This document shows, piece after piece, positions 26,048 to 59,300 of a stretch of DNA of 64,000 nucleotides (its first letter is position 1; each line of letters opens with the position of its first letter). The DNA comes from a phage. The stretch lies in the sequence record OZ335963.1; one strand, given 5' to 3'. The translations under genes and the position numbers were made by a program. A model generated the notes under the pieces. It saw only the letters and a list, made by a program, of their open reading frames with translations, searched no databases and was not told the DNA's origin.

Positions 26048-26051
26048 CAAT

Positions 26052-26080
26052 GGGGACCTTTCGGTCCCCATATTTTTATT
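26052..26080. terminator. Terminator after gene 54
   Basis: GGGGACC-TTTC-GGTCCCC then T-rich tract. Confidence 0.75.
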
Positions 26081-26366
26081 TACGGAATGAAATAAAAGCA
26101 GCAACTGAAGCAACTAAACTGTCTTCAATATAAACTTCAATTTTTACCGGAGCTTCTGACTCAAATTTACCTGTTACTACACCTTGGAAAATGCTTTCAG
26201 TCTGTTCTGGCTTTGAAAAATTTTCAGAAGGAAAAATTCCGAACTTTTTATCTGTTCCAAAAATTTTGATAAATTCATCATAAACTGCTTCATTAAAAGC
26301 GTTATCAGCAGGAATAACGCCTTCAACTACAAGTTCTTGGCCTAAAAAGCGTAAAGAAGATTTCAT
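26076..26366 (-). CDS. Hypothetical early protein (alt.-3-like position)
   Basis: 96-aa ORF with sigma70-type promoter and GAGGA Shine-Dalgarno upstream. Confidence 0.55.
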   Translation of the reverse strand: MKSSLRFLGQELVVEGVIPADNAFNEAVYDEFIKIFGTDKKFGIFPSENFSKPEQTESIFQGVVTGKFESEAPVKIEVYIEDSLVASVAAFISFRK

Positions 26367-26397
26367 TTTGTGTTCCTCATGTTATGTCAGTAAAATT

Positions 26398-26426
26398 ATT
26401 ATAACACAACACGAGGGACTTGTAAA
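26398..26426 (-). promoter_or_regulatory. Early sigma70-type promoter (TTTACA, 17 nt, TATAAT) upstream of alt.-3-like gene
   Basis: Minus strand -35 TTTACA at 26421-26426, -10 TATAAT at 26398-26403, 17-nt spacer; block duplicated at 42356-42384. Confidence 0.65.
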
Positions 26427-28484
26427 CTACATCTTGAACTTTTTAGACATTCCGTTGATGTTAACCAAAGAAGCCAAGATTTGAGAAACTTCGTTTTCCT
26501 CTTCTTTTGATTCTTCTACAAGGAATTGATTAAACCCAGCCATTGGACGAACTTCACCAGTTTCCATTAGATGATCGCCATCATATACCGATTCTTCTAA
26601 TTGTTCAGAAGGAGGAACGATTGTGCCTTCGATTAGATACTTGTTATAAGCAGTTTCTTTCATCATGTACGTGCTCACTTTATTAATCTTCAGCAAAATT
26701 CCACGCGGTAGAATAACTTCAGCTTCTGATGGAAATCCTGATAAATGACCTGGAACGATAACTTTGATTCGCTCAGCCCCTTTAATTACCATACCTACGC
26801 TAGTTTCAGCATCTTCATTAGCATATGCAGAATGACTACCCATATGCATTAAATCTTCAGCATCAACAGAACCTTCTCCTTCACCAGAAAATACTGCGCC
26901 GGAATCATCTAGAGCCATATAGTTTTTACCATGCTCACCGAAGATATTTGGTTTAAGCGATGTTGATACGAAGTTCTTAAAATAGAACATTTTATTTTCA
27001 ATATTATGACGTAAAGTTTTAAAAGTAACTTCTTGCCCACGATAAAGCGTAGTTCCTGGAGGAAGAACTGATCCTTTGGCGAACGCAGAATCCAGCGTCT
27101 CGATGTGTTTAATAGCTCGTTCCATGTATTCTTCACGGGTAGAATCTGGTTTACCCAAGAGGAACGAGTTCATTTCAACATATGAATCTGCACAATAATC
27201 TTCAATTACATCAGACTCAGCCTGAGTTAATCCTTTTGGAGTTACTTCGGTGCTTGCGTATTCATATGCCTGAGCAGCAGATTCATTAATCAATTTATAA
27301 ATGCCATTCATGACAAATTGAATAATAGCTACCTTTTCGTCTGGTGTGGCTTTAGAACCTTTAACTAAATCATTGATAATTTTCTTAATAACATCAAAGC
27401 TATTAGAAATATTAATGTCAGCGAGATCGCTCAAAATTTTATCAGTTTTATAATCAAAAAATTCTTTATTCTTTAAATATTCTTGAGAACCTTGATATGT
27501 TATATCGCTCTGCAGCTTGATAGATGGATCACGTAAACGTGCATGGGCCAATGCAATATGATTTCGGAAGCTTTCTAGTTCATAATCGTTAGATTTAAAA
27601 CGAGAAGCACTTCTCATACCACCGATAGCTCCTTTGCTGAAGTTTGAACCAATCTGAATAACGCCAGAGTTCATTGGTCCTTCTGCTTTATATACCGGAA
27701 CTTTAGATTCAAACTCTTGATATTTCTTAGCGGCGAAGCTATCACCCTGAAGTGAAGCATCAACAGTAGAATATTGAGCTTGCGCTGCTAATCGACGACT
27801 AATTTTAGTTTTCTGAATAACAGCTTGATCCGTGCGCTTATCATTTTCTAAAGCAATAGAAGCAGCAACAGCAACAGCTTTAGGGACAGCATTACCTGTT
27901 TTAACATCTACATACACATCACCAACCTTTGATTCAACTTTTGTGAATAACTCAGTTGAAATAGGAGGTACACCTGGAATGTCTTCTAAATTGGCATTTT
28001 TACGGTAAACCATAATATATGCATACTTTTTATCATAATCCCAGATTTCTTTTAAAAGAACATATCGACCTGCTCCTTTAGTACGTACTAAACGGTCAGC
28101 AATAACTTGCATTTGACGAGCTGCGCCATTTGTTTTACTTTTTAGTACGCGGAATAGGCATGCGTCAATTTTATACTGTTTCATTGTTTGAAGAGCAGTA
28201 TCAAAAACTGCATTAATGACACCAATTGGATTTCCACCCAAGTTTTTAAGCTTAACTAATGATAGTTTCTCATTAACACCTATCATTACGATATGCATCA
28301 TTTTATCGCCTGGCTTAACGTTTTTATTTGTATCACCGCCAGAGGTGTATGTACAAAATCTAAATCCAGGAAGCACGCTTTCTTCACCGGCTTGAATAGC
28401 AAAAATTTGAGGTATTTTATGCTTAGGATTTAAGTTAACAACCGGCGCCGAAGCGCCGTCAAATAATTCTGTAATAAGTTCCAT
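26427..28484 (-). CDS. Alt-like ADP-ribosyltransferase paralog
   Basis: 685-aa ORF; N-terminus MELITELFD and C-terminal ART motifs (YRGQ, FVSTSL, EAEVILPRG) shared with neighbouring alt; central region divergent. Confidence 0.85.
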   Translation of the reverse strand: MELITELFDGASAPVVNLNPKHKIPQIFAIQAGEESVLPGFRFCTYTSGGDTNKNVKPGDKMMHIVMIGVNEKLSLVKLKNLGGNPIGVINAVFDTALQTMKQYKIDACLFRVLKSKTNGAARQMQVIADRLVRTKGAGRYVLLKEIWDYDKKYAYIMVYRKNANLEDIPGVPPISTELFTKVESKVGDVYVDVKTGNAVPKAVAVAASIALENDKRTDQAVIQKTKISRRLAAQAQYSTVDASLQGDSFAAKKYQEFESKVPVYKAEGPMNSGVIQIGSNFSKGAIGGMRSASRFKSNDYELESFRNHIALAHARLRDPSIKLQSDITYQGSQEYLKNKEFFDYKTDKILSDLADINISNSFDVIKKIINDLVKGSKATPDEKVAIIQFVMNGIYKLINESAAQAYEYASTEVTPKGLTQAESDVIEDYCADSYVEMNSFLLGKPDSTREEYMERAIKHIETLDSAFAKGSVLPPGTTLYRGQEVTFKTLRHNIENKMFYFKNFVSTSLKPNIFGEHGKNYMALDDSGAVFSGEGEGSVDAEDLMHMGSHSAYANEDAETSVGMVIKGAERIKVIVPGHLSGFPSEAEVILPRGILLKINKVSTYMMKETAYNKYLIEGTIVPPSEQLEESVYDGDHLMETGEVRPMAGFNQFLVEESKEEENEVSQILASLVNINGMSKKFKM

Positions 28485-28487
28485 GAT

Positions 28488-30584
28488 TTATCCTTGAACG
28501 AACTTGTACGGCATGTTTGTAATATCTATGCAAGACGCAATAATTCCAAGAGATGATTCTACTTTTTGTTTAACATTTGATGAAACAAATGATGCAAAGT
28601 CAACTCTGTCTTCTATTTCAATATCACCTGTCATTGCAACTACTTCACCAGTTTCCATTAGACGGTCACCGTCATAAATTACTGATTCGGTGAGTTCTTC
28701 CGTAGTCATAACTTCAGCTTGAATGAGTTTTGTATTATTAGATGTTGTTCCGTCATTATTAGAAGCATCAGTTATTTTATTAACTTTGACCATCAATCCG
28801 CGTGGTAGAATAACTTCAGCTTCAGTTGCTATTCCGAGACTTCCTGGATATACAACATTAACTTTATGAGCTCCATCAATTGCCCATCCTATTTGAACTT
28901 TAACGTATTCAGGATTTTCTTTATACGCTCTTATTTCGTTTGGATTAATAGTTATTCCTTCTTCATTTTTATCAACTGTTAATTCATTGCGAGCTTCTGG
29001 TTCTAAAAGACCAATACCAGCATGTGTAATTCCAAAACGTCCAAAAATGATAGGAGTTAAAGAAGTAGATACAAAATTTCTGAAATAGAACACTTTATTT
29101 TTAACTAGTGCTTCGTATATAGGAGCAGTCATACTTTGAGCACGATAAACTGTAATGCCTTCTGGTATACGGTCACCATTTTCAAAAGCTGAATCTAAGT
29201 TATTTATAGCAGATTCAATTTCTTTTTCACTCATTACATCATATCGTTCTGGATTGTAGCGGCCTAAAAGAAGATTATTGATGTCAGTATATCCTGATCC
29301 ACAATACTCTCTAATGCCGCGCTTTTGCGATGGAGTATATTTAGAACCATCGCGTGCAATGGTAATATCAATCATTGGACCTGCACCAATTCCAGAAAAG
29401 CTATAAATCATTCGTTTGAGGAATTTAGTTTTTGCTGCGTTCCAGGAATTTTTAGTTATTTCTTCCCAGACTTCATCTGGCTGCCCTTTGCGAGTTTTAT
29501 TATGTTTATCAAGCCATTTATCTTTGTAATCTTCAAAGAATCTATTAACAGCTGCTGCGTATTTCTCTAAACATTTTATTGAAGTAGTTGGTTCATTTTT
29601 AATCGCATTAAGAATTACATCTTTAATCTTTTCAGAAACTTCATTAACCTCACTTTTTGAAAAGAATTTATAGTCATAATGAAGTTCATCTGCAGTTCCT
29701 TCGGCAATAATTTTTGCTGCCTTAGTTTTAGAAGCCAATGAATTAATTCCAAGTTTCATTTCTTCTGCTTCGGGAATTAAAGGAGCGGTAGCAGGTTTAT
29801 TGAAATTAGCTGCAGTAGATTCATACTTTTGGAATAATTCACTTTCAAATCTAGAAGATTCCAATGACTGACTTTGTGCAATTGCTCTACGGGAAATTTT
29901 AACTTTAACGATTACAGCTTGGTCAGAACGTTTATCGTTTTCTTGCGCAATAGATGCTGCAATTGCCTCATTTTTAGTTACTTGAGCTCCAGTATCTTTA
30001 TTGATATAAACATCACCGACCTTCGATTCAACTTTAGTAAAGAGCTCGGTACTAATTTCAGGAACTCCTGGGATGTCTTCTAATGATACATTTTTGCGAT
30101 GTATAAGAATATATGCATACTTTTTATCGTAATCCCAGAGTTCCTTAAGAAGGACGTATCTGCCACCTGAACGACTGCGGATAAGCCTATCAGCAATAAG
30201 TTGAATTTGACGAGCTTGACCAGCAGTTTTAGACTTAAGAATACGGAGCATACAGGCATCAATTTTATACTGACGCATCGTTTGCATTGCAACAGTAAAA
30301 ACTGAATTGATGTAATTAATTGGGCTTGGACCGAGACCTTTTAATTTAGCAATTGAACCTTTAGCAGTTAATGTAAAAGGAACAATATGCATCATTTTAT
30401 CGCCCATCTTTAAATCGCGATTAGTATCACCTCCAGATGTATAAGTACATAAACGAAAACCTGGTTGTTCAATTGCGTCATCAACATGAACTGAAAAAAT
30501 TTGCGGTATTTTCTTCTTTGGATTTAAGTTTGTAATCGGAAGAGTAGTATCTTCGTCAAATAATTCTGTAATGAGTTCCATCAT
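28488..30584 (-). CDS. alt: Alt ADP-ribosyltransferase (capsid-packaged)
   Basis: 698-aa ORF (MMELITELFDEDTTLP...); ART motifs YRAQ, FVSTSL, EAEVILPRG; TATAAATA late promoter upstream; adjacent to gene 30 as in T4. Confidence 0.88.
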   Translation of the reverse strand: MMELITELFDEDTTLPITNLNPKKKIPQIFSVHVDDAIEQPGFRLCTYTSGGDTNRDLKMGDKMMHIVPFTLTAKGSIAKLKGLGPSPINYINSVFTVAMQTMRQYKIDACMLRILKSKTAGQARQIQLIADRLIRSRSGGRYVLLKELWDYDKKYAYILIHRKNVSLEDIPGVPEISTELFTKVESKVGDVYINKDTGAQVTKNEAIAASIAQENDKRSDQAVIVKVKISRRAIAQSQSLESSRFESELFQKYESTAANFNKPATAPLIPEAEEMKLGINSLASKTKAAKIIAEGTADELHYDYKFFSKSEVNEVSEKIKDVILNAIKNEPTTSIKCLEKYAAAVNRFFEDYKDKWLDKHNKTRKGQPDEVWEEITKNSWNAAKTKFLKRMIYSFSGIGAGPMIDITIARDGSKYTPSQKRGIREYCGSGYTDINNLLLGRYNPERYDVMSEKEIESAINNLDSAFENGDRIPEGITVYRAQSMTAPIYEALVKNKVFYFRNFVSTSLTPIIFGRFGITHAGIGLLEPEARNELTVDKNEEGITINPNEIRAYKENPEYVKVQIGWAIDGAHKVNVVYPGSLGIATEAEVILPRGLMVKVNKITDASNNDGTTSNNTKLIQAEVMTTEELTESVIYDGDRLMETGEVVAMTGDIEIEDRVDFASFVSSNVKQKVESSLGIIASCIDITNMPYKFVQG

Positions 30585-30604: not shown

Positions 30605-30612
30605 TATTTATA
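30605..30612 (-). promoter_or_regulatory. Late promoter TATAAATA (minus strand) upstream of alt
   Basis: Plus-strand TATTTATA 21 nt upstream of alt ATG, followed by GAGAGGA Shine-Dalgarno. Confidence 0.6.
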
Positions 30613-30635: not shown

Positions 30636-30822
30636 AATAATCTATTGGTAAGAGAGTACGATATATTTCAAACTTTGGACCTTTTTCATAGGTATCAAAT
30701 GTTTCCGTGAATTTATTATAAGCATATGCATCTACAAATTCAATCATAATTTGTGATACAGAAGTAGAAACATCTCCACCTTCTTTTTGAGCCACGACAA
30801 TTGTTTCTAAGTAAGCTTTCAT
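30634..30822 (-). CDS. Hypothetical small protein
   Basis: 62-aa ORF between gene 30 and alt, overlapping gene 30 stop. Confidence 0.4.
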   Translation of the reverse strand: MKAYLETIVVAQKEGGDVSTSVSQIMIEFVDAYAYNKFTETFDTYEKGPKFEIYRTLLPIDY

Positions 30823-32279
30823 AGACCAGTTACCTCATGAAAATCACCAAATACATCCTCGAATGTATTAGCTTTAGTTTTATCTTCACGTAAACGAATC
30901 GCAATCGGAAGAAATAATTTAACGTAATCAGTGCGGCCATCAGATTTTAACCAACCATTACATTCGCATTCTAGAATTTTTCCAATATAATAATTTTGGT
31001 TTTCCATAATGCGAGTACGGTCAAGTTCATGCGATTTTACGCCGGCTTTATCTTTTAAGCCTGAACCAGCATTTACTTTAATTTTTCCACACTCTGATTC
31101 AAGAATAAATCCACCTGCTTTAGTAGGGTCTTTACGGTGAGGATAAATTCCTACAATTTTTAAATCAACATCAATTACTTCTTTAAATTTATAGAGATTT
31201 TTTGAACGAGCATTTTCCCATAATCCATCGATATTTTTGAGAATAATACCTTCAAGACCTTGGTCAATATACTTTTTATAAATTACCTTAGCTTCATCTA
31301 GGTTATTTACTACCTGGTTTTCAATTAAAATTACTTTATCATATCCTGATGTCATTTGTTCTAGTTTAGAAAAACGTACATCATATTTTAAACGAAACGC
31401 CGGAAGACCGTATATTTCTACCAACGGGACATAATCCCATACCTGAAACTTCATGCATTTGGCTTCTTTTTCAGAAATGGTTCCTTTTAAGGATTTATTG
31501 GCGATTCCATTAGAAGCAGTACGTGATTCAGCTACTTCGGCAAACTCTTTAGCTTTATTGATTTCAGGAGCATCAAAAAGAAAATCTAGGCCTTCTGGCT
31601 CCTTTTCAGCTTGCTCATGGTATACCAATTCGCCATCGATTAACACACCTTCTGGATGAATCTGGCGGGCTTCAGCAGTCATTTTGATTAACTCTTCCTT
31701 AAGAAGATCTAATCCTAGATATTCATTACCAGCTCGTGATAAAAGACGAACATCATCTAATTCATCGCCTCGGACTTCAGCAAAACACCGAGCTCCATCT
31801 GCTTTTAACTGTGCAAAGGCTGGAAACTTGATATTCTTATTAATGCCTTTTTCATCATAAGAACTTGCCAGCATTTGAGGTTGTTCAGGAATTAAACCTG
31901 GCCAAACTTTATTTGCGATAGATACTGAAGCACCGCATTCAAGGTCTCGCATCATAACTCGACGCAAAACTTCAACATCATCTTTTTTACCATCGGTGAT
32001 ATATCCAGTTAATTCCTCAATTGCTGCATTGCCAGTTAATTTCCGAGTAGCTAACGTGAATTCAATGAAGTCCAGCATATCAGTAATAGTCAGCATTCCA
32101 AAACTCTGGGTAGCAATACCAGGCTTAGGCCATTTCTTAATATAATACTGTAACCCACGAGAATAAGTCAGACGATACACTCGTTTAAGCAATTCATTAT
32201 CTTTATTCTTTTCAAGAATTGCTTGCTTCTGCTTAGTTGATCCGATAGATGCTATTTCATTCAGAATTTTAAGAATCAT
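30819..32279 (-). CDS. 30: ATP-dependent DNA ligase
   Basis: 486-aa ORF with adenylation motif KADGAR; matches T4 DNA ligase as remembered. Confidence 0.96.
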   Translation of the reverse strand: MILKILNEIASIGSTKQKQAILEKNKDNELLKRVYRLTYSRGLQYYIKKWPKPGIATQSFGMLTITDMLDFIEFTLATRKLTGNAAIEELTGYITDGKKDDVEVLRRVMMRDLECGASVSIANKVWPGLIPEQPQMLASSYDEKGINKNIKFPAFAQLKADGARCFAEVRGDELDDVRLLSRAGNEYLGLDLLKEELIKMTAEARQIHPEGVLIDGELVYHEQAEKEPEGLDFLFDAPEINKAKEFAEVAESRTASNGIANKSLKGTISEKEAKCMKFQVWDYVPLVEIYGLPAFRLKYDVRFSKLEQMTSGYDKVILIENQVVNNLDEAKVIYKKYIDQGLEGIILKNIDGLWENARSKNLYKFKEVIDVDLKIVGIYPHRKDPTKAGGFILESECGKIKVNAGSGLKDKAGVKSHELDRTRIMENQNYYIGKILECECNGWLKSDGRTDYVKLFLPIAIRLREDKTKANTFEDVFGDFHEVTGL

Positions 32280-35327: not shown

Positions 35328-35401
35328 TTTATTCTCCTTTGTTTGTGTAAGATAATACTATCACAAAGGAACCATACTGTAAACAACTTTGTGCAATCTT
35401 T

Positions 35402-39015: not shown

Positions 39016-39077
39016 TTCAATTTCCTCATTTGTTTTGGTAGAGCTATAATATCACAACTCTACCGTAAAGTAAACTA

Positions 39078-41480: not shown

Positions 41481-41830
41481 TTAGAAAGGTCCTGGATGTC
41501 TTCTGCGAACTTGTTGAAGGAGTTGTTGATTTGTTTTTCAACCAATCCTGGCTTATGAGCCACCACATCCGCCTTCTTTGCGTCTTTGCGCAGTTTTTCA
41601 TTTTCACGCTCAATAGCAGCAATTGCCTCACGATTTTTATTATTCATCGCATCAATATAATTATACTGAATTCGCAAATTATTTAATGCTAAAGCGTTTT
41701 CATTGGCCGTTTTTGTAATTTCTACAACAGACGTTTCTAATCTTTCAATTTTATTTTTTAAAATTAAAGAAGTTCCGCCCAATGCAATTACAATTAATAA
41801 CAAGCCTGTTGTCGTATTACTTAATTGCAT
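41477..41830 (-). CDS. Putative inner-membrane spanin (i-spanin-like)
   Basis: 117-aa ORF; N-terminal transmembrane segment then coiled-coil-like region; overlaps the lipoprotein gene. Confidence 0.65.
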   Translation of the reverse strand: MQLSNTTTGLLLIVIALGGTSLILKNKIERLETSVVEITKTANENALALNNLRIQYNYIDAMNNKNREAIAAIERENEKLRKDAKKADVVAHKPGLVEKQINNSFNKFAEDIQDLSK

Positions 41831-42324
41831 AAAGTTTTAATAACCTCTACAATATCGTCTTGAGAAAGACCGTTAATTAAAATATGATGTTCAGCTGGAG
41901 ATTTAGAAATTTTAAAGCATGCCTCAACATCTTCTGCCATATCCGATGCGCTACGATTTGGATTACTAATTCCAAGACGATGTTTTCCCGTTAAAGGATT
42001 AACGATGATATAGCATTTACAGTTGTTAATATGAACATTAGGTTGAGTCTGATTAATGAATACATCACAATCATATTTCGCAAGCTGATTTTCTAAAAAG
42101 ACTTTCATCTCCTCAACCGCATCAGGAAGCATATCACGAGCTTGCTCAAGACGACGATTTCGATATTCTTTAATGGTCGTTTTCCGCTTGACTTGCTTAG
42201 CTAAATCTTTCTTAAGATCGGTGATATATCCAACTCGACGATTTCCTTTAAATACAGAAATCCCATCTGTAGTATCACCGTATGCTTCAACGACCATCTC
42301 AGTAGTAATAAGCTGCAAATCCAT
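41821..42324 (-). CDS. alc: Alc host transcription shutoff protein
   Basis: 167 aa from second ATG, T4 Alc length and position; early promoter upstream. Confidence 0.85.
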   Translation of the reverse strand: MDLQLITTEMVVEAYGDTTDGISVFKGNRRVGYITDLKKDLAKQVKRKTTIKEYRNRRLEQARDMLPDAVEEMKVFLENQLAKYDCDVFINQTQPNVHINNCKCYIIVNPLTGKHRLGISNPNRSASDMAEDVEACFKISKSPAEHHILINGLSQDDIVEVIKTLCN

Positions 42325-42355
42325 CATAAAGTCCTCATGTTATGTCAGTAAGATT

Positions 42356-42384
42356 ATTATAACACAACACGAGGGACTTGTAAA
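42356..42384 (-). promoter_or_regulatory. Early sigma70-type promoter upstream of alc (duplicate of the 26398-26426 module)
   Basis: Minus strand -35 TTTACA at 42379-42384, -10 TATAAT at 42356-42361, 17-nt spacer. Confidence 0.65.
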
Positions 42385-42388
42385 CAGC

Positions 42389-43976
<1,588 letters not shown>

Positions 43977-56354: not shown

Positions 56355-59300
56355 ATGGCCGAGATTAAAAGAAAGTTCAGAGCAGAAGACGGTCTGGACG
56401 CAGGTGGCGATAAAATAATCAATGTAGCTTTAGCTGATCGTACCGTAGGAACTGACGGTGTTAACGTTGATTACTTAATTCAAGAAAACACAGTTCAACA
56501 ATATGATCCAACTCGTGGATATTTAAAAGATTTTGTAATCATTTATAATAATCGTTTTTGGGCAGCAACGGATAATATTCCAAAACCTGCTGGAAGTTTT
56601 AATAGAATTCGTTGGAAAGCATTACGTACTGATGCCGTATATACAACCGTATCATCTGGACCGTATCAATTAAAGTCCGGAGAAGCAATTTCAGTAGATA
56701 CATCAGTTGGTAATGACATTGAGTTTACTTTACCACCTTCTCCGCTCGATGGAGAAACAGTAATAATTCAAGATATCGGTGGAAAACCTGGTATAAATCA
56801 GGTTAAAATAAGTTCTTCAAATCAGAGCATTGTTAATTTTAGAGGTGAACAAGTACGTTCAGTTTTAATGACTCATCCAAAGTCACAGATGATATTCATT
56901 TTTAATAATCGTTTGTGGCAAATGTATGTTGCTGATTATAGCAGAGAAGCTGCAATTGTTACTCCATCGACTGCGTATCAAGCGCAATCTAATGATTTTA
57001 TCGTGCGTAGATTTACTTCCGCAGCGCCGATTAATATTAAACTTCCGAAATTTGCTAATCATGGCGATATTATTAATTTCGTTGATTTAGATAAATTAAA
57101 TCCTCTTTATCATACAATTGTCACGACATATGATGAAACAACTTCAGTACAAGAAGTTGGAACTCATTCCATTGAAGGCCGTACATCGATTGACGGTTTC
57201 TTGATGTTTGATGATAATGAAAAATTATGGAGATTGTTTGACGGGGATAGTAAAGCGCGTTTACGTATCATAACGACTAATTCTAATATTCGTCCAAATG
57301 AAGAAGTTATGGTATTTGGTGCGAATAACGGAACAGCCCAAACAATTGAACTTCAACTTCCAACCGATATTTCCATTGGTGATACTGTTAAAATTTCCAT
57401 GAATTACATGAGAAAAGGACAAACAGTTAAAATCAAAGCTGCCGGTGAAGATAAAATTGCTTCTTCAGTTCAATTGCTGCAATTCCCAAAACGCTCAGAA
57501 TATCCACCTGAAGCTGAATGGGTGACTGTTCAAGAATTAGTTTTTAATGGTGAAACTAATTATGTTCCAGTTTTACAGCTTGCTTATATTGAAGATTCTG
57601 ACGGAAAATACTGGGTAGTACAACAAAACGTTCCAACAGTTGAAAGAGTTGATTCTTTAAATAATTCTACTAGAGCAAGATTAGGCGTAATTGCTTTAGC
57701 TACACAAGCCCAAGCTAACGTCGATTTAGAAAATTCTCCACAAAAAGAATTAGCAATTACTCCAGAAACATTAGCTAACCGTACTGCTACAGAAACTCGT
57801 AGAGGTATCGCAAGAATAGCAACTACTGCTCAAGTAAATCAGAACACTACATTCTCTTTTGCTGATGACCTTATCATCACTCCTAAAAAGCTGAATGAAA
57901 GAACTGCTACAGAAACTCGTAGAGGTGTTGCTGAAATTGCTACGCAGCAGGAAACTAATACAGGTACTGATGATACTACAATCATCACTCCTAAAAAGCT
58001 TCAAGCTCGTCAAGGTTCTGAAACATTATCGGGTATTGTAACTTTTGTATCTACCGCAGGAGCTACTCCAGCCTCTAGTCGTGAATTAAATGGTACAAAT
58101 GTTTATAATAAAAATACTAATAATTTAGTTGTTTCGCCTAAAGCTTTGGATCAGTATAAAGCTACTCCAACACAACAAGGCGCAGTAATTTTAGCAGTTG
58201 AAAGTGAAGTAATTGCTGGACAGAGTCAAGAAGGATGGGCAAATGCGGTTGTAACGCCAGAAACGTTACATAAAAAAACATCAACTGATGGAAGAATTGG
58301 TTTAATTGAAATTGCTACGCAAAGCGAAGTTAATACAGGAACTGATTATACTCGCGCAGTCACTCCTAAAACTTTAAATGACCGTAGAGCAACTGAAAGT
58401 TTAAGTGGTATAGCTGAAATTGCTACACAAGTTGAATTCGACGCAGGCGTCGACGATACTCGTATCTCTACACCATTAAAAATTAAAACTAGATTTGATA
58501 GTACTGATCGTACTTCTGTTGTTGCTCTATCTGGATTAGTTGAATCAGGAACTCTCTGGGACCATTATACCCTTAATATTCTTGAAGCAAATGAGACACA
58601 ACGTGGTACACTTCGTGTGGCTACACAAGTTGAAGCTGCTGCAGGAACATTAGATAATGTTTTGATAACTCCTAAAAAGCTTTTAGGTACTAAATCTACT
58701 GAAGCGCAAGAAGGCGTTATTAAAGTTGCAACTCAAGTTGAAACTGTTACTGGAACGTCAGCAAATACTGCTGTATCTCCAAAAAATTTAAAATGGATTG
58801 TGCAGAGTGAACCTACTTGGGCAGCAACTACTTTGGTAAGAGGTTTTGTTAAAACTTCATCTGGTTCAATTACATTCGTTGGTAATGATACAGTTGGTTC
58901 AACACAGTCATTAGACTTGTACGAGAAAAATAGCTATGCAGTATCGCCATATGAATTAAACCGTGTATTAGCAAATTATTTGCCGTTAAAAGCAAAAGCT
59001 GTAGATAGTAATTTATTGGATGGTCTAGATTCATCTCAGTTCATTCGTAGGGATATTGCGCAGACGGTTAATGGTTCACTAACCTTAACACAACAAACGA
59101 ATCTGAGTGCCCCTCTTGTATCATCTAGTACTGCTACGTTTGGTGGATCAGTTTCGGCAAATAGTACATTAACTATTTCTAATACTGGAACGGCAACTCG
59201 TCTGATTTTTGAGAAAGGACCTCAAACTGGAACGAACCCAGCGCAGACGATGACAGTCAGAGTGTGGGGAAATCAATTCAGCGGTGAATCGGACACAACA

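Follow-up and report, generated by a model that had tools for sequence, protein, structure and literature searches.

Here, we analysed a 64,000-nt stretch of phage DNA (sequence record OZ335963.1; hereafter the window) from a member of the genus Tequatrovirus that is a close relative of T4. Two of its genes, the homologue of T4 alt.-3 and alc (inhibitor of host transcription), are each preceded by a copy of the same 54-nt cassette, which contains an early promoter, a leader and a Shine-Dalgarno (SD) sequence. Phage T4 carries both cassettes at the same two loci. The copies, defined by sequence comparison, and the genes around them, among which alt.-3, alc and rnlA were assigned by T4 annotation, are as follows:

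26374-26427, minus strand: copy A of the 54-nt cassette, 5' of alt.-3
26076-26366, minus strand: alt.-3 homologue, 96 amino acids, served by copy A
26427-28484, minus strand: second alt-like ADP-ribosyltransferase open reading frame (ORF), 685 amino acids, whose transcripts run into copy A
42332-42385, minus strand: copy B of the 54-nt cassette, 5' of alc
41821-42327, minus strand: alc
42389-43513, minus strand: rnlA (gene 63, RNA ligase 1), whose transcripts run into copy B

The alt.-3 homologue is 100% identical to T4 Alt.-3. T4 annotation starts alc at the second ATG, which corresponds to 42324 in the window, and the rnlA ORF, listed from a GTG at 43549, has the start of a T4-length protein of 374 amino acids (MQELF) at 43513. 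Each cassette is intergenic and reaches from the stop codon of the gene upstream as far as the SD sequence and ATG of the next gene: the first base of copy A is the G of the TAG stop codon of the alt-like ORF, and copy B begins 3 nt past the TAA stop codon of rnlA. The distance from the SD sequence to the start codon is 8 nt for alt.-3 and either 5 or 8 nt for the two candidate ATGs of alc.

On the minus strand, the repeat reads GTTTACAAGTCCCTCGTGTTGTGTTATAATAAT(T/C)TTACTGACATAACATGAGGA. The two copies are direct repeats that differ by this single T/C mismatch, and the sequences flanking them are unrelated on both sides. A first-pass annotation of this DNA had reported a repeat of about 53 bp with one mismatch at 26375-26427 and 42332-42384. 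The repeat and the first interval were reproduced by our alignment, but the second interval was off by one: the 53-mer from GTTTACA to GAGG occupies 26375-26427 and 42333-42385, and one extra common A brings the identity to 54 nt. A coincidental match would not be expected, as no match to the repeat was obtained in 100 dinucleotide-preserving shuffles with up to three mismatches allowed. The cassette pair is the sole long, near-perfect dispersed repeat of the window, whose remaining repeat families show 60-94% matches and are located mostly within paralogous coding sequence. A search for further copies gave only these two in the window; when an 81-nt query was used, 999 places were found in 500 phage records, 499 of which have exactly two copies.

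Both copies consist of a -35 hexamer TTTACA, a 17-nt spacer and a -10 box TATAAT with TGT directly 5' of it (extended -10, TGn), and 11 of 12 positions match the sigma-70 consensus. This is the arrangement of T4-type sigma-70 early promoters (-35 GTTTAC(A/T), spacer 17±1, TAnnnT). The individual elements, located by consensus scan (together with the sequence itself for the extended -10) or by promoter geometry for the starts, are:

26421-26426, minus strand: copy A, -35 hexamer TTTACA
26398-26406, minus strand: copy A, extended -10 (TGT and TATAAT)
26391, minus strand: copy A, predicted transcription start, the A of cttAc, 7 nt past the -10 box
42379-42384, minus strand: copy B, -35 hexamer TTTACA
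42356-42364, minus strand: copy B, extended -10 (TGT and TATAAT)
42349, minus strand: copy B, predicted transcription start, placed as in copy A

Transcription would be expected to start at the A at 26391 and at 42349, based on promoter geometry and the conserved CTTAC/CTAC that follows the -10 box. Candidate A/T-rich UP elements include TTTTTTGAAAAATTATAAAAAATTTAT approximately 20-47 nt 5' of the -35 hexamer in copy B and only CTAAAAAG, inside coding sequence, in copy A. In GenBank record OL960580, the alt.-3 copy is annotated as a T4 early promoter via consensus similarity. Consensus scans, ORFs and T4 annotation all agree with the first-pass proposal that a T4-type early promoter, a leader and a GAGG SD sequence lie directly 5' of both alt.-3 and alc. 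Early expression of the two genes had also been suggested, and in published time-resolved omics data of T4 both belong to the early class at the RNA and protein levels. In the same data alt is late, alt.-1 and alt.-2 RNAs are 'middle', and rnlA has early RNA with late protein. The early class of alt.-3 and alc in T4, unlike that of the genes upstream of them, fits with early promoters being active at both sites.

Canonical T4 early promoters are similar to both copies in having GTTTACA, a 17-nt spacer, TGn, TATAAT or TATAGT, and CTTAC at the start. However, ordinary T4 early promoters share the consensus positions only, whereas these two agree at 53 of 54 positions, including the otherwise unconstrained spacer and leader. 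The identity runs exactly from the -35 element to the SD sequence because spacer and leader are the two arms of a hairpin, which had been overlooked when they were described as a shared leader with its SD sequence. Pairing takes place between the promoter spacer CCUCGUGUUGUGUUA (cassette positions 12-26) and the leader with its SD sequence UGACAUAACAUGAGG (positions 39-53) and involves three G-U pairs; the predicted stem has 15-19 bp, and the -10 box and predicted start are inside the loop. The arms obtained by folding are:

26402-26416, minus strand: copy A, 5' arm CCUCGUGUUGUGUUA, in the promoter spacer and the first -10 bases
26375-26389, minus strand: copy A, 3' arm UGACAUAACAUGAGG, with the SD sequence GAGG at 26375-26378
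42360-42374, minus strand: copy B, 5' arm
42333-42347, minus strand: copy B, 3' arm, with the SD sequence GAGG at 42333-42336

In copy B only, AAGUCC (42374-42379) is also able to pair with GGACUU located 3' of the SD sequence. Read-through segments of 86 nt were predicted to fold with -25.8 kcal/mol for both copies (z -5.0 for copy A and -4.5 for copy B), and the cassette alone, folded as RNA, gave -22.3 and -22.8 kcal/mol (z -6.1 and -5.8). No significant structure (z -0.5 and -0.35) resulted for RNAs whose 5' end is the predicted start; by geometry, this start is 2 bases 5' of the 3' arm, so promoter-initiated RNA is without the 5' arm. In a partition-function model, the probability that the SD sequence is unpaired was 0.001 in read-through RNA vs 0.26 in promoter-initiated RNA for copy A, and 0.008 vs 0.61 for copy B. 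Ten other alc leader types gave values of 0.000-0.002 vs 0.28-0.79, and in leaders without a long stem the SD sequence of read-through RNA was unpaired with a probability of mostly 0.17-0.80, apart from two controls with 0.03. In Tequatrovirus the sense strand folds at -22 to -24 kcal/mol and the antisense strand at -14 to -18 kcal/mol. Since this difference of 4-10 kcal/mol is due to the G-U pairs, it argues for a feature of the sense-strand RNA rather than a DNA cruciform.

A search of the whole window against Rfam 15 yielded no match at the gathering score, and the sole hit in the region was a chance match to a miRNA hairpin (E 0.07). Cleavage of the SD sequence by RegB was also considered and rejected: the SD sequence of Tequatrovirus is GAGG, whereas the RegB target is GGAG. 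The AUG in the 3' arm opens a mini-ORF of 4-5 codons on the minus strand in each copy, AUG AGG AAC ACA AAA UGA in copy A (26361-26378) and AUG AGG ACU UUA UGA in copy B (42322-42336). At its 3' end, the UGA overlaps with the alt.-3 or alc start codon; the mini-ORF lacks an SD sequence of its own and may be coincidental.

Two copies in one genome represent a single observation, and we therefore examined alc in other T-even genera, comparing 6 loci from annotated phages and 37 from IMG/VR (individual loci are numbered with the prefix L). The motif GTTTACA-N17-TAnnnT was nearly always present in the rnlA-alc spacer. About 16 distinct stem sequences were found, each of which forms a helix of 9-15 bp that extends from 1-5 nt past GTTTACA to the SD sequence. 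The helix occurs in Tequatrovirus, Dhakavirus, Karamvirus, Gelderlandvirus, Klebsiella phage Roth21 and unclassified IMG/VR phages, with stem arms such as:

Karamvirus, alc: UCUCCAUUUGG and CCAAAUGGAGA
Gelderlandvirus, alc: UCUCCGUUUAGUU and AACUAAACGGAGA
Klebsiella phage Roth21, alc: UCCUCGUCAG and CUGAUGAGGA
Dhakavirus, alc: UCUCCUCAU and AUGAGGAGA
Unclassified IMG/VR phage (L024), alc: UCCUCAUUUUGUUG and CAACAAAAUGAGGA

When 19 distinct leaders were aligned with a fixed register, 90.2% of cells were paired, compared with 36-46% when the 3' partner was slid by 1-3 columns. Both-sided changes were observed in 10 of 14 pairs, with a covariation score of 0.60 vs 0.06-0.17, and none of 500 shuffles attained the observed pairing. 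A separate count over all 23 leader rows, including four Dhakavirus-type rows that are absent from the 19-row alignment, agreed with this result. The position of the 5' arm was fixed independently, by the promoter. For counting, plain MAFFT alignments of the leaders were set aside, as they shifted the 3' arms out of register or opened a gap in the four Dhakavirus-type rows; a covariance-model alignment was not used for pair counts either, as it contained reverse-strand palindrome hits and other promoters. Within Tequatrovirus, variants of the 5' arm mostly preserve the structure (C to U opposite G, or G to A opposite U), and the alt.-3-specific change C11U lengthens the helix into the alt.-3-specific flank. 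In the other genera, the stems are almost all Watson-Crick, and the strand is indistinguishable. These data support well both the hairpin structure and its selection.

VR7-type phages have an alc fragment inserted upstream. In such Gaprivervirus-type phages (VR7, positions 1260-1493 of L012; also L027, L028 and L051), an ORF for a 77-amino-acid Alc-like fragment is located between rnlA and alc and is preceded by a G+C-rich terminator-like hairpin, not by a GTTTACA cassette.

The alt.-3 copy appears to have a more recent history. In Dhakavirus, Karamvirus, Mosigvirus and Marfavirus, alt.-3 directly follows alt and has its own GTTTACA-N17-TACTAT promoter without a long SD-masking stem, and this region is identical to the alc module of the same genome at 22-38 of 66 positions. 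The alt.-3 promoters of these genera are thus unlike their own alc modules, and the near-identity of the two copies is therefore specific to Tequatrovirus. Because the arrangement at alc is common to other T-even genera, it may be regarded as ancestral; the alt.-3 version probably arose in the Tequatrovirus lineage as a 54-bp ectopic copy of the alc module or through gene conversion by it, and copying would have run from alc to alt.-3.

The number of differences between the two copies is one in the window and in T4, two in SHFML-11, and 4-5 of 54 in IME340, T2 and T6. TATAAT/TATAGT and AAT/AGT variants were found at both loci. The sequence is TATAGTAGT in either copy of T4 and TATAATAAT in either copy of the window, which suggested strict concerted evolution, but contig 2974787500 combines AAT-AAT at alt.-3 with AGT-AGA at alc. 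In view of this mixed contig and of the 4-5 differences in T2, T6 and IME340, strict concerted evolution was rejected. The pattern fits occasional conversion together with shared polymorphism or recombination between phages, rather than continuous homogenisation.

Exchange between the two loci was also observed in other lineages. In the Dhakavirus-like contig 2706795356 (positions 1447-1510 of L040, and L068), a 31-nt segment, CCTTACACAAACATGAGGAGAACATTATGAA, is the same in the leaders of alc and alt.-3 but absent from alc in sister genomes. Judged from these sequences, the two loci have swapped a leader independently, and this contig still keeps a 10-bp hairpin at alc. In Mosigvirus, the alc module is approximately 75% identical to an alt.-3-type module (RB69, L011 1441-1510, vs AV112, L056 1140-1200), with a small ACAC...GTGT spacer hairpin and a ATCAACAACAYGAGGA leader, which suggests that here replacement took place in the opposite direction, from an alt.-3-type module to alc.

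These exchange footprints agree with the view of the first-pass annotation that the copies are substrates for recombination, and it has been reported that T4 recombines at much shorter homologies and that pairs of promoter-early stem-loop (PeSL) elements yield mini-circles (PMC2839356). However, the deletion between the copies that had been proposed as well was overstated. The copies are 15,958 bp apart, and a crossover would remove about 16 kb from alc through alt, and with it gene 30 (DNA ligase, 30819-32279) and gene 31 (co-chaperonin). Both genes are essential in T4. One would therefore expect no viable deletion phage from such a crossover, but at most junction molecules or circles; the reciprocal duplication would exceed a headful.

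PeSL elements of T4-type phages are among the closest published systems, and the cassette matches their type. Like the cassette, they are intergenic, start right after the upstream stop codon, end in an SD sequence and start codon, and combine a strong sigma-70-like early promoter with a stem-loop in or over it, here a stable stem of 15-19 bp around the -10 box as in the subclass 'overlapping the -10 box' (PMC2839356, PMC4122927). PeSL elements also occur as similar copies within one genome and serve as recombination points (PMC2839356, PMC4122927), which may apply to the cassette pair as well. The cassette fits the consensus TTTACW-N17-TAYWAT given for PST/T4 by Comeau et al. (2014, PMC4122927), while a legend of that paper places PST stems just upstream of the promoter, unlike in the cassette. 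The PeSL stem-loop was published as a terminator or attenuator; the word 'translation' is absent from the 2010 paper, where SD masking is not discussed (PMC2839356).

On the other hand, SD masking is known from T4 e, soc, 49 and I-TevI (PMC3014915), in which, similar to the cassette, the SD sequence and/or AUG is paired in long read-through transcripts, and a promoter in the region of the 5' strand gives rise to a shorter, translatable RNA without the 5' arm. For the cassette, pairing of the SD sequence in the long transcript is indicated by both prediction and covariation. The internal promoters of e, soc, 49 and I-TevI, however, are late (TATAAATA) or middle, and expression is delayed, whereas the cassette has a sigma-70 early promoter. 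It would work alike but is strictly not a member of this group: its predicted effect is the mirror image of that of e, soc and I-TevI, with translation limited to early transcripts. Neither alc nor alt.-3 is among the hairpin examples in the review of Uzan and Miller (2010, PMC3014915). The cassette adds an example to regulatory devices already known from phages rather than representing a new kind of element.

Hairpins within promoters seem to be a general habit of these phages. Among five further strict early-promoter matches in the window, one has a pairing between spacer and SD sequence, two have hairpins that enclose the -10 box only, and two have nothing comparable. The three with hairpins are unrelated in sequence to the cassette. 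They are on the minus strand, with the G of the -35 element at 35384, 39075 and 51691, and each has an inverted repeat between spacer and leader that encloses the -10 box (z -2.1, -4.2 and -3.4, respectively); at 35384, TCCTTTGT pairs with ACAAAGGA, SD sequence included. SD masking may not be the sole role of such promoter-embedded hairpins.

Based on these comparisons, the following mechanism could be proposed. The spacer just past the -35 element would act as an anti-SD complementary to the SD region of its own cassette. RNA entering from upstream (late alt mRNA at copy A and rnlA mRNA at copy B) would fold into the hairpin of 15-19 bp with the SD sequence buried, whereas RNA from the embedded promoter would be without the 5' arm and its SD sequence would be free. 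Consequently, most translation of alc and alt.-3 would take place on the early transcripts made at their own promoters, and their expression would be limited to the early sigma-70 period. A likely source of late read-through RNA at copy A is the following motif:

30605-30612, minus strand: late-promoter motif TATAAATA, about 20 nt 5' of the first alt gene (28488-30584)

Such a motif fits the late, virion-packaged nature of the alt protein; in the whole window, TATAAATA was counted 19 times vs 8.6 expected. We give about even chances to the reading that the cassette is a PeSL-type early promoter whose spacer masks its own SD sequence on foreign transcripts and which was duplicated from alc to alt.-3; the translational block on read-through RNA would follow from the folding models. 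Somewhat more tentative is the broader proposal of a promoter-gated translational insulator, or 'early-only' switch, which would have been kept at alc by compensatory evolution in at least 4-5 T-even genera and would have undergone independent alc/alt.-3 exchanges in at least 2-3 lineages (the whole module in Tequatrovirus, the 31-nt leader in the Dhakavirus-like phage and, probably, the transfer of an alt.-3-type module to alc in Mosigvirus).

Several points weigh against SD masking as the function of the cassette. The mechanism is derived from folding predictions and comparative sequence, with predicted transcription starts, and the 3' block of the alignment was registered on the best helix of each sequence, which favours structure and is only partly corrected by the controls. 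No long stem was found at alc in Mosigvirus (RB69, L039), L038 or L050, and in L036, L049 and L041 the hairpin around the -10 box ends 2-5 nt before the SD sequence. The hairpins at 39075 and 51691 likewise end before the SD sequence, and since some leaders and promoters have hairpins of this -10-only type, a role in attenuation or RNA-end formation could be primary. The upstream stop codons are only 9-14 nt before the 5' arm, and the stem might be melted at its base by ribosomes that terminate there, with coupling rather than a block as the outcome. Our literature search found no paper on a hairpin at alc or alt.-3, with the classical catalogues (Liebig and Rueger 1989; Miller et al. 2003) being outside that search, and the hairpin may have been described before.

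According to the main rival explanation, the stem-loop would act on the upstream transcripts, either by termination or attenuation or as an element for RNA 3' ends or stability, and SD masking would be incidental to a short leader. One stem-loop of an RB49 PeSL lowered downstream lacZ expression to a similar extent as rrnB T1 (Arbiol et al. 2010, PMC2839356), and stem-loops between the -35 and -10 elements or overlapping the -10 box are the commonest PeSL arrangement (PMC2839356), to which the hairpins that enclose the -10 box without the SD sequence in some alc leaders and in two other early promoters of the window may be added. However, the assayed element is from a different phage and has a different stem: RB49 stems are G/C-rich (GGGG...CCCC), whereas those of the cassette are A/U- and G-U-rich without a U-tract. 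The scan found no terminator-like site at either copy, the tails 3' of the hairpins (AACACAAAAUG and ACUUUAUGAUG) have no U-run, and both copies lack the G+C-rich stem and U-run of an intrinsic terminator. Moreover, the end of the 3' arm coincides exactly with the SD sequence in most alc lineages, where the 5' arm starts with an anti-SD (CCUC or CUCC). We consider attenuation or RNA-end formation unlikely, although it is the competitor to be taken most seriously. In a second scenario, the pairing of anti-SD and SD on read-through RNA would be melted by a ribosome that terminates at the end of the alt-like ORF or rnlA, and the downstream gene would be translated only with the upstream ORF. The stop codons are located 0-5 nt before the G of the -35 element (hence 9-14 nt before the first pair), and the spacing is similar in other genera. 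Nevertheless, in T4 Alc is an early and RnlA a late protein, as are Alt.-3 and Alt, respectively; these differing classes imply that synthesis of the neighbours is uncoupled in time. The stem of at least 15 bp would also be longer than a terminating ribosome is expected to unwind, and we regard such translational coupling as improbable.

The view of the first-pass annotation was that of a plain duplication of a strong promoter and leader; the complementarity between spacer and SD sequence would then be functionless, and the identity would reflect recent duplication or conversion. Two copies in one genome are indeed not independent evidence for a structure, and exchanges between both loci do occur, but the alc leaders of other genera keep the helix via compensatory changes, single-base variants in Tequatrovirus mostly keep the pairing, and the two copies fold with z-scores of -4.5 to -6. 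A duplication without hairpin function is disfavoured by this covariation, and we would assign it a slightly lower probability still than coupling. It could also be supposed that the inverted repeat acts in DNA, either as a cruciform or as a site for a dimeric protein that modulates the promoter, considering that it brackets the -10 box and that the stems outside Tequatrovirus are almost all Watson-Crick. However, 3 of the 15 pairs in Tequatrovirus are G-U and would turn into A-C mismatches in a cruciform and on the opposite strand, folding in this genus favours the sense over the antisense strand by 4-10 kcal/mol, and the stem sequence is not conserved between genera, which is against a sequence-specific protein site. 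Of all the explanations, this DNA-level one is the least probable, and we give it very little weight.

Some additional features of the window were noticed during the analysis. A 9-bp G+C-rich hairpin is present at 26050-26071, between the convergent alt.-3 and gene 54; it has a T-run only on the plus strand, the terminator scan lists both strands, and the homologous site in the SA21RB record is annotated as a rho-independent terminator on both strands. Upstream of copy A, two full-length alt-like ADP-ribosyltransferase genes are arranged in tandem on the minus strand (26427-28484, 685 amino acids, and 28488-30584, 698 amino acids), and parts of their DNA are about 70-80% alike. T4 retains the second of them only as fragments (alt.-1, alt.-2 and the last few codons), and the T4 deletion in this paralogue ends exactly at copy A. 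In a distant region (57756-58681), families of direct repeats of 29-68 nt with 66-79% identity, approximately 110-680 nt apart, look like a repeated peptide motif in a large structural (fibre-like) gene.

Both principles combined in the cassette are already known in T4, which belongs to a very well studied phage group, and the basic understanding of these phages is unchanged. If the proposed mechanism is true, it would show how an immediate-early gene is kept silent on late or delayed transcripts that cross it in a dense phage genome, and no extra protein would be needed, as one stretch of DNA would serve as both promoter spacer and anti-SD. Of the genes concerned, alc encodes the host-transcription shut-off factor, and alt.-3 can mutate to escape the CmdTAC defence according to the literature. 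PeSL stem-loops would then have a function beyond termination, and the cassette would offer a simple, portable design for promoter-specific translation. Furthermore, the repeated exchange between two fixed loci 13-16 kb apart represents ectopic gene conversion between regulatory cassettes of T-even phages.

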